The position numbers and the translations under genes were made by a program. Source: an uncultured virus (IMG/VR IMGVR_UViG_3300009181_007169) (lineage: Duplodnaviria; Heunggongvirae; Uroviricota; Caudoviricetes). From it: a DNA stretch of 22,976 bases. Below, piece by piece: positions 1,563 through 18,004 of this stretch. The stretch lies in IMG/VR virus record IMGVR_UViG_3300009181_007169. One strand, given 5' to 3'. Each line of letters opens with the position of its first letter. The first letter of the stretch is position 1. The notes under the pieces are model-generated. The model was not told the origin of the DNA. It saw only the letters and a program-made list of their open reading frames with translations, and made no database searches.

Positions 1563-1639
1563 TGGTACTCCGAACGGGATTTGAACCCGTGATCTTCGCC
1601 GTGAAAGAGCGATGTCCTGAACCGCTAGACGACCGGAGC
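1563..1639 (-). tRNA. tRNA-Glu(UUC)
   Basis: Cloverleaf with acceptor GCTCCGG/TCGGAGT, anticodon arm TCGCT-CTTTCAC-GGCGA, T-loop TTCAAAT, encoded CCA. Confidence 0.95.
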
Positions 1640-1640
1640 A

Positions 1641-1739
1641 TGGGAGCGGGGGTGGGATTTGAACCCACGACCTCCGAGTTATTAAAAGCCCCTTAAGGCA
1701 CTTAATGAGCCCGACAAGCTACCACTGCTCTACCCCGCA
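1641..1739 (-). tRNA. initiator-type tRNA-Met(CAU) with a 24-nt insertion in the anticodon loop
   Basis: Unpaired 1:72, GCGGGG/CCCCGC acceptor, TCGGG-CTCAT[24 nt, 1681-1704]AA-CTCGG, GTGGG-TTCAAAT-CCCAC, CCA end. Confidence 0.85.
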
Positions 1740-1790
1740 ATAATATTATACGATTTTTTTAAGATTTTGTTCAGAAAATTATTAAAAAAC

Positions 1791-4807: not shown

Positions 4808-5515
4808 TTATTTATGAAGTTGCACAAGAAGGGACTCTAAACAATCAATGTCTGGTTTTTTTTCCTTAATTGAGCTGGGTAAATCTTCAAACATAATTTT
4901 TAAGTCTTGAATACCTTTTTCAATACCTTCTTCATGTTCTCTAATAAATTCTAAAGTAATATCTTCAATAGGCATGAGCTTAATTGACATCAGCTTATCA
5001 TGTAAAGATTGTGAGTAGTCTTTAACTACTGGTTCAAAAGTTCCAGTATTTAGGAGCTGGTCAGCTTGTGCCAATACTCTGTAAGCGGCGACAATCGACT
5101 TAGGTATTCTTCTTAAAGTGTTATCTTCGAATGGTTGTTGAGCATTTCTTAAATATCTTTTTAGTTGTGCTTCGGCGTAACCAATATGAGCTAACAAAAT
5201 CTTTCTTCCATCAAAAGCATAGTTAGGAATCATTCTGAGCATTTCTGAAAAATTATTCTTTTCATAAATTGGGGATTTAATAACTTCATACATGGTAGGA
5301 TTTCCTGAGGTGAGATGCTTAACAAAGTTTCTCAGCTCCCATGATTCAGTGTCTTCACCATTAGCTGATGCTGTTTTGGTATTGCTGTTGTTGAATGGCG
5401 ATACCAACTCTCTTATTGATAATCTGTAGATAAATCTAGCATCTTCATCAGACTGTGGCGTAGACAGACCGTGCATTTTACTTCCTACAGTTGCTTTGTA
5501 AATGATTTCGCTCAT
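4808..5515 (-). CDS. RlaP/YcgL-type nucleotidyltransferase (Pol-beta superfamily)
   Basis: Start corrected to the ATG at 5515 in repeat 5513. VGSKMHGLSTPQSDEDARFIY carries the GS..G....SD.D motif; WELRNFVKHLTSGNPTMYE is typical of the family. Confidence 0.85.
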   Translation of the reverse strand: MSEIIYKATVGSKMHGLSTPQSDEDARFIYRLSIRELVSPFNNSNTKTASANGEDTESWELRNFVKHLTSGNPTMYEVIKSPIYEKNNFSEMLRMIPNYAFDGRKILLAHIGYAEAQLKRYLRNAQQPFEDNTLRRIPKSIVAAYRVLAQADQLLNTGTFEPVVKDYSQSLHDKLMSIKLMPIEDITLEFIREHEEGIEKGIQDLKIMFEDLPSSIKEKKPDIDCLESLLVQLHK

Positions 5516-5580
5516 ATATCTATTATAATCAGATTGTGTTATAAGTGGAAAACACGGGCTGGCATCCCCCTGGAGGGGGA

Positions 5581-5793
5581 TTATTCCTCCTCCGCTGGTG
5601 GTGTGGCTAGTTCTACCTTGATTGCGTCCCATTGCTTTTGCGTGAAAATCACAAGGTCTTCACGGTGCAATGAATCAACATCGTTCTCAAAAGTCTCATC
5701 AAACCAAAGGTGCAAAGTTGCGGTTGACGATTCCACGCTATCAACCCTGCAATGGGCAGGGATTGGCACAAAATTTGTTTCTCGTTCAGTCAT
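5581..5793 (-). CDS. hypothetical protein
   Basis: Exactly fills the space between repeats 5791 and 5513. Confidence 0.8.
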   Translation of the reverse strand: MTERETNFVPIPAHCRVDSVESSTATLHLWFDETFENDVDSLHREDLVIFTQKQWDAIKVELATPPAEEE

Positions 5794-6034: not shown

Positions 6035-6114
6035 ATCTATTATAATCTGGATTTGTTATAAGTGGAAAAAACGGGCTGCCATCCCCTTGGAGGGGGAATT
6101 GGTAAAGTGCTGAG

Positions 6115-6187
6115 CCTCTCCAAGAGGACTCGAACCTCCGACCCATTGCTTAGAAGGCAATTGCTCTTTCCACTGAGCTATGGAGAG
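6115..6187 (-). tRNA. tRNA-Arg(UCU)
   Basis: CTCTCCA/TGGAGAG acceptor, ATTGC-CTTCTAA-GCAAT, GGAGG-TTCGAGT-CCTCT; no encoded CCA; TGTATAAT just upstream. Confidence 0.95.
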
Positions 6188-9084: not shown

Positions 9085-9318
9085 CTAATCTATTGGACTA
9101 ACTTGATAAGCCCAACCCCAATGACCATTGTCAAGGTCAAAAATAAAACTATGACCATCTTCAAGTTTAGAAAAATTCATTTCTTCAACAGAAGTGCCAT
9201 TGTGTTTATTACCTTGAGAAACACCTGCAACAATACCAGTAACTTTAGCCACTACTGGAGCATTTTGACCCCAGCCTCCTTTGTAAATTACTTTGTCTCC
9301 TACTTTAATTGTTTTCAT
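9085..9318 (-). CDS. small SH3/KOW-like protein
   Basis: ATG from repeat 9316; MKTIKVGDKVIY...DLDNGHW. Confidence 0.85.
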   Translation of the reverse strand: MKTIKVGDKVIYKGGWGQNAPVVAKVTGIVAGVSQGNKHNGTSVEEMNFSKLEDGHSFIFDLDNGHWGWAYQVSPID

Positions 9319-9380
9319 ATCTATTATAATCAGATTGTGTTATAACTGGAAAAAACGGGCTGGCATCCCCCTAGAGGGGG

Positions 9381-9718: not shown

Positions 9719-10120
9719 CTAGTTTCTCTGCGACCTTCCCTTCCCACGGTTTGAATTCTTATATGTTGGTGTCAAAGAATCACAACATCCACATAATAAT
9801 CTTAAATTTGATTCTGTATTGTTTTTCCAATCACCATCAATATGGTCAGCAACTAATGGAACCTTTCCAGTATATATATTGAGTTTAGACCAACCACATT
9901 GAATACACTTGTTGTCAAACTTTTCGCGTAAATAACGCTTTACATGTGAATTCACATTACCTAATGCGTTCAATCCATCAACATCGCCACATTTCCACTG
10001 TCTGATATAATCGGCATACTGCCAATCTAATTGACATTGTTGACAACAGTATTTATTAGGTTTTCGTGGCACAGGCTTACCACAATGCAGGCAAGGTTTT
10101 TGTTCTACTCTTCGACTCAT
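9719..10120 (-). CDS. HNH endonuclease (putative free-standing homing endonuclease)
   Basis: CIQCGW...VPLVADHIDGDWKNNTESNLRLLCGCCDSLTPTY plus N-terminal CLHC...YCCQQC; inserted inside a tRNA gene. Confidence 0.9.
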   Translation of the reverse strand: MSRRVEQKPCLHCGKPVPRKPNKYCCQQCQLDWQYADYIRQWKCGDVDGLNALGNVNSHVKRYLREKFDNKCIQCGWSKLNIYTGKVPLVADHIDGDWKNNTESNLRLLCGCCDSLTPTYKNSNRGKGRSQRN

Positions 10121-10173: not shown

Positions 10174-10255
10174 TGGAGCCGAGTAGGAGAATCGAACTCC
10201 TTCTGATTTCTCGGTAGTTTACAAAACTACTGCTATCCCAATTAGCGAACTCGGC
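10174..10255 (-). tRNA. tRNA-Thr(UGU) with extended variable region
   Basis: GCCGAGT/ACTCGGC acceptor, GTAGT-TTTGTAA-ACTAC, 12-nt variable region, AGGAG-TTCGATT-CTCCT, T-CCA. Confidence 0.85.
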
Positions 10256-10288
10256 TTACTTGCTCTATCGCTGAGCTAATCCAGCTTA

Positions 10289-10363
10289 TGGCTGACACCA
10301 TAGGATTCGAACCTATAACCCCTTCGTTAACAGCGAAAAGCTCTACCGTTGAGCTAGGTGTCA
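10289..10363 (-). tRNA. tRNA-Asn(GUU)
   Basis: TGACACC/GGTGTCA acceptor, TTTCG-CTGTTAA-CGAAG, ATAGG-TTCGAAT-CCTAT, G-CCA. Confidence 0.95.
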
Positions 10364-10369
10364 GTATGT

Positions 10370-10445
10370 TGGCGACCCATGAGGGGATTGAACCCTCCGT
10401 CTCCGCCGTGACAGGGCGGCAACTCCACCAGTTGTCCTATGAGCC
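10370..10445 (-). tRNA. tRNA-Asp(GUC)
   Basis: GGCTCAT/ATGGGTC acceptor, CCGCC-CTGTCAC-GGCGG, T-loop TTCAATC, G-CCA. Confidence 0.95.
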
Positions 10446-14416: not shown

Positions 14417-14815
14417 TTACCACCAACTTGAGTAGAGAACATCGTAGCCTTCTTTTATGGCTTTGCGTGATGCTTGTATGAAGTCTAGGTCATCTTTGAG
14501 ATAACCTTCTGTATTCCCTGAACCAAAGAAAAACCCTACTGTCTCAGGCAGTTTCTTATTTATCACTGCTTGTTCAAGGTTGTCCAAGTCCTTTTCATCA
14601 AGTTTGATGCAAACGCAGTTGAACTCTTCTTCTCCACCTCTTTCGTAATAAAGATTTTCCATGAAACCTTGGAGGTCGTGATGCTTTCTCCAGTAGAAAA
14701 AGTGTCTGTCGTATTCGTGCAAAGGTTCCCCTTTCTCTTCATTCCAGAGTTTAATGTCGATTGTGTCTTCAACAAGACCCTTTTTAATTTTGTAAGCGTA
14801 TTGGTCTAATCCCAT
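14417..14815 (-). CDS. conserved phage protein of unknown function
   Basis: ATG from repeat 14813; MGLDQY...YWRKH..LQGFM...FNC...GFFFG...YSSWW. Confidence 0.85.
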   Translation of the reverse strand: MGLDQYAYKIKKGLVEDTIDIKLWNEEKGEPLHEYDRHFFYWRKHHDLQGFMENLYYERGGEEEFNCVCIKLDEKDLDNLEQAVINKKLPETVGFFFGSGNTEGYLKDDLDFIQASRKAIKEGYDVLYSSWW

Positions 14816-14929
14816 ATCTATTATAATCAGATTGTGTTATAACTGGAAAAACGGGCTGGCATCCCCTTGGAGGGGATTAAAATTTATCCTTGAATTCGTT
14901 GATGAAATCTTCAGATTCTATTTTATTTC

Positions 14930-15418
14930 TCAAAATAGCCCCCCAATCCACGTTCCCTTATAATCTGCAAATTCTTTGTTGAACTCTTCAGAAAGTGTTT
15001 GTTTAGCTGAAATCTCATCCCAATCCACACGATTTTCAAATTCGCGAATGAACTCTTCAGACAGTTTTTGATATCCTGAAATTTTCTCCCAATTCACAAG
15101 GTCTTCGAACTCACGAATGAACTCTTCAGACAATGTTTGGTATTCTGAAATAAAATACCAATTCACACGACCTTTGAACTCACGAATAAAATCCTCAGAC
15201 AGTGTTTGGCAAGATGAAATCCAACGCCAATTTAACCTATCTTTGAATTCACGAATGAACTCTTCAGACAATGTTTGGTAGTATGAAATCTCATTCCAGT
15301 CCACACTGTCTGCATATTTACGAATGAAATCCTCAGACAGTTTTGGATGTTGTGAAATTTGTTTCCAGCCCACACGGGGTGTCACAGTATATTTATCGAT
15401 TAACTCTTGATCGGTCAT
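14930..15418 (-). CDS. tryptophan-repeat protein, last repeat frameshifted
   Basis: Six 22-aa (66-nt) units W..IS.YQ(T/K)LSEEFIREF...V(N/D); a further unit continues in another frame to TAA 14877-14879. Confidence 0.9.
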   Translation of the reverse strand: MTDQELIDKYTVTPRVGWKQISQHPKLSEDFIRKYADSVDWNEISYYQTLSEEFIREFKDRLNWRWISSCQTLSEDFIREFKGRVNWYFISEYQTLSEEFIREFEDLVNWEKISGYQKLSEEFIREFENRVDWDEISAKQTLSEEFNKEFADYKGTWIGGLF

Positions 15419-17864: not shown

Positions 17865-17932
17865 ATCTATTATAATCACGATTTGTTATAAGTGGAAAAA
17901 ATCGAGCTGTTGCCCTTTCAGAGGGGGAATTG

Positions 17933-18004
17933 TGGGAACACTGGGATTCGAACCCAGAACTTACTGGTTAAAAGCCAGTTACTCTACCATTGAGTTATGT
18001 ACCC
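17933..18004 (-). tRNA. tRNA-Lys(UUU)
   Basis: GGGTACA/TGTTCCC acceptor, ACTGG-CTTTTAA-CCAGT, CTGGG-TTCGAAT-CCCAG; no encoded CCA; own TATAAT ~15 nt upstream. Confidence 0.95.

Follow-up and report, generated by a model that had tools for sequence, protein, structure and literature searches.

A 24-nt hairpin insert in the anticodon loop of an initiator-type tRNA gene: a candidate mini-intron in a group of freshwater jumbo phages

We describe a tRNA(CAU) gene of the initiator type that is interrupted in its anticodon loop by 24 nt able to fold into a hairpin. The gene lies on a 22,976-nt stretch of DNA from an uncultured virus of the Caudoviricetes (IMG/VR record IMGVR_UViG_3300009181_007169), to which we refer, at its full length, as the window. 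Seven sequences contain the interrupted gene: the window, one IMG/VR contig (L199) and 5 of 34 metagenome loci found by a pattern scan. They represent three distinct alleles in 4 genomic contexts (lineages A to D). As textbooks have it, and to our knowledge, the only tRNA introns of bacteria and their viruses are self-splicing (group I) ones. We tentatively read the insert, with a confidence just short of even, as a protein-processed mini-intron of an unexplained phage kind.

Results

An anticodon loop with 24 extra nucleotides

The Rfam tRNA model (RF00005) recognizes the gene with 46.5 bits against a gathering threshold of 29, as one of 7 tRNA matches in the window, and finds 28 nt where it expects 4 anticodon-loop positions. 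With default settings, ARAGORN reports 6 tRNAs in the window and misses the interrupted gene; with introns allowed, it returns a tRNA-Met(cat) of 75 nt including CCA, with a 24-nt intron. Deleting the 24 nt (Table 1) leaves the 7-nt loop CUCAUAA, with U33, CAU and A37 in place, and does so in all three alleles. Both programs thus bear out the preliminary description of this DNA, which had placed 24 extra bases at 1681-1704 and predicted a CTCATAA loop upon their removal. Its 2-nt uncertainty about the border also stands: because AT both precedes the insert and ends it, borders at 34|35, 35|36 and 36|37 all yield the same loop, and the alignment with an insert-less orthologue has the same ambiguity. 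A border at the canonical position 37/38 would leave U37.

Table 1. Coordinates of the interrupted tRNA gene and of associated features in the window
Feature	Position	Strand	Evidence or remark
tRNA(CAU) gene, interrupted	1739->1641	-	Rfam tRNA model and ARAGORN with introns allowed
tRNA(CAU) 5' part, nt 1-35 (35 nt): acceptor 5' strand, D arm, anticodon-stem 5' strand, C32 U33 C34 A35 U36	1705..1739	-	Rfam alignment, ARAGORN -i, pair counts
24-nt insert, mini-intron candidate, TAAGTGCCTTAAGGGGCTTTTAAT	1681..1704	-	Rfam alignment, ARAGORN, orthologue alignment
tRNA(CAU) 3' part (37 nt, up to nt 73): A37 A38, anticodon-stem 3' strand, variable loop, T arm, acceptor 3' strand, U72, C73	1644..1680	-	Rfam alignment, ARAGORN, pair counts
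Encoded CCA end	1641..1643	-	Lineages A and C have it, B and D lack it
tRNA-Glu(UUC), 1 nt downstream of CCA	1563..1639	-	Partner of tRNA(CAU) in all relatives
Sigma-70-like promoter of the tRNA pair, TGAACA-17-TATAAT	1745..1773	-	10/12 matches
RlaP-family nucleotidyltransferase (RNA-ligase-associated Pol-beta family)	4808..5632	-	Pfam PF10127, E 2e-21
tRNA genes of the window	1563-1639, 6114-6187, 10174-10445, 17932-18004		Scattered through the early region

The hairpin described earlier for the insert proved to be its minimum-free-energy fold, with 6 bp, a UxU mismatch, 4 bp and the loop UAAG. In this fold, A35, U36 and four insert bases pair with the last six insert bases, and the hairpin stands on a 3x2 internal loop above the anticodon stem. 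Its register is kept across the three alleles.

An assembly or sequencing artefact was rejected as an explanation, and we give it next to no weight: five metagenome contigs from other assemblies hold the identical 24 nt, a DNA contig of sequencing run X2 (Logan) spans 1517-2711, insert included, with 0 differences, and a diverged copy is present in IMG/VR.

Initiator-type features of the tRNA

Bacterial initiator tRNAs are marked by the anticodon CAU, the lack of a Watson-Crick pair at 1:72, A11:U24 in the D stem, three consecutive G:C pairs at 29-31:39-41 and the discriminator A73. The anticodon CAU stands in a 7-nt loop only after removal of the 24 nt. All three insert-bearing alleles (3/3) lack a Watson-Crick pair at 1:72 and have A11:U24 (columns 11:23 in our pair counts), and the tRNA body is close to initiator tRNAs of cellular genomes that were matched by the pattern scan described below.

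In a related phage contig, G004, Rfam finds 24 tRNAs and ARAGORN three tRNA(CAT) genes. Because the orthologue of the interrupted gene is the only one of these three with A11:U24, the phage probably has no initiator-type tRNA other than the interrupted gene; the two remaining tRNA(CAT) genes of G004 carry the elongator marks G1:C72 and C11:G24. Position 1:72 is mismatched in 3/3 insert-bearing alleles versus a U1:A72 pair in 2/2 insert-less orthologues, and alleles with and without the insert may differ in initiator versus elongator behaviour.

Interrupted and uninterrupted relatives

We scanned sequence collections with a pattern of both gene halves separated by a free gap of 5-35 nt. Metagenome contigs gave 34 loci, 5 of them with an insert of exactly 24 nt. 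No insert was present at the 5 loci found in IMG/VR or at the 18 loci (19 matches) found in a set of one genome per prokaryote species, half or more of which came from metagenome-assembled genomes (MAGs) of the order Bacteroidales. The exact pattern missed lineage D. In IMG/VR, the exact insert with its flanks had 0 matches, as did a strict pattern for tRNA-fMet with an insert. The insert borders (CTCATTAAG..CTTTTAATAA) matched 60 IMG/VR loci, none with an adjacent T-arm or within a tRNA, and we take these as chance or coding matches. The insert is also a single copy in the window (1 match with up to 3 mismatches allowed), and we rejected a multi-copy hairpin element of the REP or MITE kind on these two counts.

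The 7 insert-bearing sequences fall into four lineages. Lineage A comprises the window and L018. Lineage B (L022, L035 and L040) has a tRNA(CAU) gene identical to that of A (0/109 differences), next to a tRNA-Glu that is D-like, and because of this tRNA-Glu lineage B is probably a recombinant; on the same ground, we rejected the A/B identity as a sign of extreme constraint. In lineage C (L027), only the 193-nt tRNA module aligns with the window and the flanks do not. Lineage D (L199:5045-5143) belongs to the IMG/VR contig G005; its module is 86% identical to that of the window, and its interrupted gene scores 45.7 bits with the Rfam model. Thus, the insert is not unique to this genome; the preliminary description had named uniqueness as one of the findings that would speak against its reading.

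The same module of promoter, tRNA(CAU) and tRNA-Glu exists without the insert in G001 (L001/L026) and G004 (L200:1506-1577). In both, the junction is exact and the loop reads CUCAUAA. A protein encoded next to the module in G001 is 67% identical to its counterpart in the window.

Conservation of the gene and of the insert

Base pairs were counted on the three distinct insert-bearing alleles. Three cloverleaf pairs changed on both sides (n=3): 7:66 from G:C to A:U, 29:41 from G:C to U:A, and 50:64 from U:A to A:U, with G.U in lineage D. Apart from 1:72, all cloverleaf cells are standard pairs (60/60). Position 1:72 is a standard pair in none of the three alleles (UxU, AxA and UxU), and a change from UxU to AxA requires two substitutions. 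Shuffle controls for cloverleaf covariation were not significant (95/500) with these few sequences, and our argument for selection rests on the kind of change and not on this statistic.

Exon differences from A amount to 4/72 in C, 8/72 in G004, 11/72 in D and 15/72 in G001. The insert is identical in A, B and C (A-C, 0/24) and 19/24 identical in D, where the 5/24 differences fall at insert positions i2, i14, i16, i18 and i21. Its length and site are constant in all alleles, with no indel, and positions i3-i13 (AGTGCCTTAAG) are invariant in 3/3 alleles. Since 5/24 insert changes stand against 11/72 exon changes, no indel occurs, and the DNA further upstream is unalignable, the insert appears to evolve about as slowly as the tRNA body.

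By exon differences, the insert-less G004 is no further from A than D is (8/72 versus 11/72). On these alignments, the presence and absence of the insert among relatives is an intron-like pattern. That the insert-bearing alleles do not group apart from G004 over the 72 sites hints at one precise loss or a lateral gain, either of which is typical of introns. From the kind of change seen, we argue that selection has maintained both the gene and its insert in several diverged members of one jumbo-phage group, as would be expected of a live gene.

On the gene strand of the window, the motif CCT(0-2 nt)AAGGGG is found 17 times, in 16 intergenic hairpins and in the tRNA insert, versus 0 times on the other strand; lineage D has lost it (AAGAGA). 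Its presence in both the insert and the intergenic hairpins may be chance, or may point to where the insert came from or to a factor that binds both.

Promoter and expression

The TATAAT that had been noted upstream of the tRNA gene holds up as the -10 box of a sigma-70-like site (Table 1) that ends 5 nt before tRNA nt 1. Sites of the TGAACA/TATAAT type are common in this AT-rich DNA (7 found versus a mean of 4.0 in shuffles). The block CGTATAATAT is kept in all insert-bearing and insert-less relatives, upstream of which the DNA can no longer be aligned. The tRNA-Glu(UUC) is probably made from the same promoter as tRNA(CAU). Among 24 sequencing runs listed, one is an RNA library (X24, share 0.08).

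A population variant joins 1752 to 2195 via TAAAAAA. It was seen in X2 and X8 (2/3 of the DNA runs examined), in X24 and in the lineage B contigs. The variant lacks ORF 1791-2201, which encodes a Cys-rich protein of 136 aa with the motif CKCxCH(D/E)P repeated twice.

RNA-repair-type genes

RlaP is the sole RNA-repair-type gene in the window, and its orthologues in G004 and G005 are 82-83% identical. The RlaP family has been described as a partner of phage RNA ligases (PMC7824862). Here it is present without an accompanying RNA ligase, as judged from the Pfam scan of the window and from searches of G004 and G005. A search of G004 and G005 for Rnl1 (PF09511) gave no match, but its control gave 0/14 in control genomes, so that this negative is uninformative. 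G001 had no match to Rnl1, Rnl2, RtcB or RlaP, and G002 and G003 had none to Rnl2, RtcB or RlaP. The splicing endonuclease family PF01974 was found in 0/2 related phage records (G004 and G005) and in none of the scanned window ORFs.

The other RNA-repair-type gene seen, apart from RlaP, is in G005 and encodes an HD-domain protein of the CCA-adding type. This 355-aa ORF (L201:8403-9470, minus strand) has the RNA-binding and HD domains of the CCA-adding/poly(A) polymerase family, with the head domain not in the called ORF, and it may be a split or mis-started CCA-adding enzyme. ORF 1002-1547, beside the tRNAs of the window, matched no Pfam or PHROG family, and 2H (HxT) motifs were not obvious on reading. 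Among 56 window ORFs, no gene was found that is common to the insert-bearing window and G005 and missing from the insert-less G004.

Other tRNA(CAT) inserts in viral sequences

A broader scan of IMG/VR, for tRNA(CAT) genes carrying 9-39 additional bases behind the anticodon, yielded 64 loci, most of them chance matches; two phage cases are genuine. One, in an unrelated phage (L149:273-386), has a 39-nt insert that comprises two small hairpins. It interrupts the tRNA at the junction also found in the window, GGCTC|..|ATAAC, is bordered by AT..AT and occurs together with A1xA72. In another unrelated phage (L161:272-354), a 10-nt CC-GAAA-GG hairpin with a GAAA tetraloop sits at 37/38 of a tRNA(CAT). 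Two further matches are tRNAs with introns in giant-virus MAGs.

Genomic context

The window is the early, tRNA-rich region of an uncultured freshwater jumbo-phage group. The preliminary description had assumed a bacterial genome; both gene content and related phage contigs identify the DNA as phage. Its long ORFs are all on one strand, and its recognizable proteins are few (an ArdC-like anti-restriction protein, an HNH endonuclease, the RlaP nucleotidyltransferase and members of PHROG families). Two IMG/VR contigs were reached via the RlaP protein: G004, of 347,392 bp and rated 99% complete, and G005, of 62,388 bp and rated 17% complete. The assignment to the early region was made because 29 of the 56 minus-strand window ORFs (at least 55 aa) have a relative in G004, all between 38 and 75 kb and mostly at 45-82% identity; 4/56 match G005, and all 4 also match G004. 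Freshwater or lake metagenomes are the source of the DNA runs that contain the window; four of these runs (X1-X4) include 94-98% of its words. By megablast, the whole window matched none of 50,697 phage records, and in tblastn with two proteins the closest cultured phages reached only 25-46% identity and have unrelated hosts.

At about 40 intergenic sites between 2666 and 22560 of the window (for example 9283-9380 and 14813-14879), one conserved unit of about 67 nt stands before nearly every small gene. On the gene strand, it consists of a CCCCTCCAAGGGG hairpin, a second G/C segment, a T-run and TTATAAC..TATAAT, with the ATG 4 nt after TATAAT, and it looks like a terminator plus a promoter with almost no leader. 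Its GGGG has two possible partners, the CCCC upstream and the CCC downstream, and the two resulting hairpins would exclude each other. Two paralogous genes of PHROG 3532 (14930-15418 and 520-975, both on the minus strand) contain 69-nt (23-aa) tandem repeats and have relatives in G004 and G005.

Besides the CAU gene, the window encodes tRNAs for Glu(UUC), Arg(UCU), Thr(UGU), Asn(GUU), Asp(GUC) and Lys(UUU), which are largely the tRNAs attacked by known anticodon nucleases. In G004, the other 15-16 tRNAs form one separate cluster at 171-173 kb. The tRNA-Thr(UGU) of the window (10174-10255, minus strand) has 7 extra variable-region bases relative to the 75-nt tRNA-Thr of G004; these form no hairpin but make it another tRNA of this phage, besides tRNA(CAU), with a small expansion.

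Discussion

A possible processing pathway

If the insert is a protein-processed mini-intron, the primary transcript would start at or within a few nucleotides of tRNA nt 1 and would probably continue into tRNA-Glu. As made, it would be unable to decode, with the insert folded back on the anticodon as an imperfect hairpin. An endonuclease would then cut both feet of the hairpin and an RNA ligase would rejoin the halves, yielding a tRNA of 72 nt plus CCA whose loop reads CUCAUAA. The enzymes would be either those of the host or unrecognized phage proteins, because the phage DNA searched showed neither a known ligase nor a known splicing nuclease, the insert is too small for a ribozyme, and it has no bulge-helix-bulge. 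One can speculate about cuts at 36|i1 and i24|37: the excised hairpin would then carry a 2-nt 3' overhang, as after cleavage by a double-strand RNase, and the resulting 3'-OH and 5'-phosphate ends could be sealed by an ATP-dependent RNA ligase. As a general rule, an RNase III-like 2-nt stagger was rejected; it fits the insert in one of the three border choices and misfits L149 in its minimum-free-energy register.

Weighing the explanations

The preliminary description had already proposed a protein-spliced mini-intron, and of the readings considered it remains the best fit. Several findings weigh against it. No spliced RNA was seen in the single RNA-library contig at hand, which may be DNA. 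This X24 contig (record 10, window 1593-1752) shows no net length change and hence retains the insert; it continues through the promoter into the deletion variant, it is not distinguishable from DNA carry-over, and contigs hide rare forms. Since the contig is possibly DNA, the comparison with RNA that had been suggested speaks neither for nor against splicing. Among 53 window ORFs, Pfam detected neither an RNA ligase nor an RNA nuclease, and it detected none among 49 of 51 G005 ORFs of at least 150 aa. Rnl2, RtcB, Tpt1, tRNA-intron endonuclease and RNase III had no match in G004 or G005, of which G004 is 99% complete but insert-less and G005 insert-bearing but only 62 kb long. Looking for RtcB, RNA ligase and endonuclease genes, as had been advised, turned up no ligase or splicing nuclease in the window ORFs, G004 or G005; the RNA-repair-type genes seen were RlaP in all three and the HD-domain protein of the CCA-adding type in G005.

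The energy of the window hairpin is ordinary (-7.3 kcal/mol, with 28/200 shuffles as good; for the whole arm, 13/200 are as good), and the lineage D hairpin is weak at -3.2 kcal/mol but better than most shuffles (5/200 as good). Compensatory support for the hairpin is absent: of 11 pairs, 0 have two-sided changes, 1 has a one-sided change that keeps its pair, and 3 have unpaired cells (i5:i18 gained in D; i2:i21 and i7:i16 lost in D). The comparison of orthologues therefore upheld conservation of the insert (19/24, with fixed length and site) and gave no covariation of its hairpin (0/11 compensatory pairs). No bulge-helix-bulge motif was found in the predicted folds of the window and lineage D. 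The insert is dispensable, as the insert-less relatives show, and the A/B identity does not count as constraint, as it probably comes from recombination. The label "initiator" is likewise supported in part, by the 1x72 mismatch, A11:U24 and CAU: the three consecutive G:C pairs at 29-31:39-41 are broken by G30.U40 in A and C and by U29:A41 in D, and all alleles have C73 in place of A73. The atypical C73 and the G-U pair in the anticodon stem had been noticed before and are confirmed.

There are at least two other explanations with a claim to consideration, and the nuclease-decoy tRNA that the preliminary description had listed as its third reading keeps some probability. It is unlikely, though well worth weighing, that the RNA is a tRNA look-alike that is never spliced and in which the hairpin replaces the anticodon loop for a non-decoding job, such as regulation or the binding or titration of a host protein that recognizes initiator tRNA (a nuclease, the formyltransferase, MetRS or IF2). 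Such a role would suit the finding that conservation within the insert is highest in a stretch of sequence (i3-i13, 3/3 alleles) and not in its base pairs, that the RNA-library contig (possibly DNA) retains the insert, and that splicing enzymes were not found in the searched phage DNA. Phages also avoid or alter tRNAs targeted by host anticodon nucleases (PMC10264068). However, a nuclease that reads the loop would hardly recognize one buried in a hairpin, a non-decoding RNA has no need for the exact 24 nt and flanks that in all alleles give a perfect CUCAUAA upon removal, and the insert-less orthologues resemble ordinary tRNAs.

A further reading, which we consider improbable, places the event at the level of DNA with no RNA function: a small hairpin insertion, be it a footprint, a miniature element or a change that destroyed the target site of a free-standing homing nuclease, would have disabled a dispensable tRNA gene, with the host supplying initiator tRNA. 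The exact presence and absence among relatives would follow from this, and the 2-nt AT..AT border repeat, which recurs at the unrelated 39-nt insert of L149, is like a target-site duplication. Genes for HNH and GIY-YIG nucleases lie in these tRNA regions (window 9719-10120; G005), and the tRNA module sits in mosaic, recombining DNA. Yet the three compensatory stem changes and the kept 1x72 mismatch arose with the insert present, the insert changed at only 5/24 positions without an indel across 11/72 exon differences, the promoter is conserved, and neither the window, with its single copy, nor the 60 IMG/VR border loci, none in a tRNA, point to a mobile hairpin. The scar or pseudogene raised in the preliminary description is weakened accordingly by the existence of three alleles, the compensatory stem changes, the persistent 1x72 mismatch and the 19/24 conservation of the insert.

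An intron of the archaeal type, in an archaeal virus or an archaeon and removed by EndA and RtcB, is very improbable. Like such an intron, the insert is small, sits within the anticodon loop and forms base pairs with the anticodon, but in place of a 3-nt bulge, 4 bp and a 3-nt bulge it has a 3x2 internal loop followed by 6 bp, a 1x1 mismatch and a further 4 bp, and if A37 is restored its site is 36/37 or equivalent and not 37/38. The tRNA is of bacterial initiator type (1x72 mismatch, A11:U24), the signals around it are sigma-70-type promoters and T-run terminators, the neighbouring genes are those of a phage (ArdC, HNH and RlaP), and PF01974 had no match in G004 or G005.

Relation to known tRNA introns and tRNA repair

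The tRNA introns of archaea and eukaryotes, which are handled by EndA or TSEN together with RtcB or Trl1, resemble the insert in being short, lying in the anticodon loop, pairing with the anticodon and needing an endonuclease and a ligase. The insert differs from them in having no bulge-helix-bulge, in not lying at 37/38, in the bacterial-type signals around it and in the absence of an EndA-family gene from G004 and G005. Group I introns interrupt the anticodon loops of bacterial and phage tRNAs, for example tRNA-Leu(UAA) and cyanobacterial tRNA-fMet. A group I intron was rejected here, as 24 nt cannot hold a core of about 200 nt or more and no Rfam intron or ribozyme was found at gathering or at E<=1 over 1500-1850. 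In T4 infection, host PrrC cuts a tRNA anticodon loop, which T4 Pnkp and Rnl1 repair. The setting is again phage infection, the loop is cut and resealed by proteins (as proposed here), and the window has RlaP; in T4, however, the lesion is a single nick in a host tRNA from which nothing is removed, and here no RNA ligase was found beside RlaP or in G004 and G005.

The closest likeness is to the introns that Devoto et al. 2019 termed "enigmatic" in the tRNAs of Lak phages (PMC6784885). According to that paper, phage tRNA introns had been unreported earlier, and a Lak intron, where the same one occurs, is typically identical across cohorts. Like the insert, Lak introns are of a non-group-I kind, lie in the anticodon loop, are invariant where present and exactly absent in some relatives, and are unexplained in mechanism. 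They occur in tRNA-Tyr, Phe, Thr and Gly of gut phages with another genetic code, in contrast to the initiator-type tRNA of a freshwater phage described here. Those sequences of Table S6 that we draw on hold a small hairpin and a tRNA-like piece, whereas the insert is a bare 24-nt hairpin. The table has 15 predicted introns, of which 13, including all Lak ones, are 76-141 nt long; predicted introns of 23 nt and 52 nt in another huge phage are given there without comment. Full-text literature searches, with most subscription journals outside their scope, found no paper on phage initiator tRNAs interrupted by a bare hairpin.

Van den Berg et al. 2023 report that phages facing a nuclease of the initiator anticodon (VapC) mostly avoid encoding tRNA-fMet (PMC10264068). 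Avoidance of VapC-type nucleases is a possible reason to mask the initiator loop.

Implications

We consider it possible, with more doubt than confidence, that bacteria or their phages have an undescribed protein-based route of tRNA splicing, in which a small anticodon hairpin, free of any bulge-helix-bulge or ribozyme, would be recognized, cut at its feet and the tRNA halves rejoined, and by which the only initiator-type tRNA of this phage group would be locked until the insert is removed. If so, a locked initiator tRNA could evade host nucleases that cut initiator tRNA, or could time the translation of the many early genes that lie close to their promoters, and the insert could shield the gene in which it lies against a homing nuclease whose targets are copies without an interruption. 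Since 2019, short tRNA introns of phages have been on record as "enigmatic", with their mechanism unexplained. The present case is small and clean: 24 nt, an exact junction known from insert-less relatives, three alleles whose tRNA body shows compensatory evolution, and an easily assayed tRNA of the initiator type. If the nuclease and ligase exist, it offers a compact substrate for finding them; if they do not, it would be a clear example of a phage tRNA look-alike that serves another purpose.

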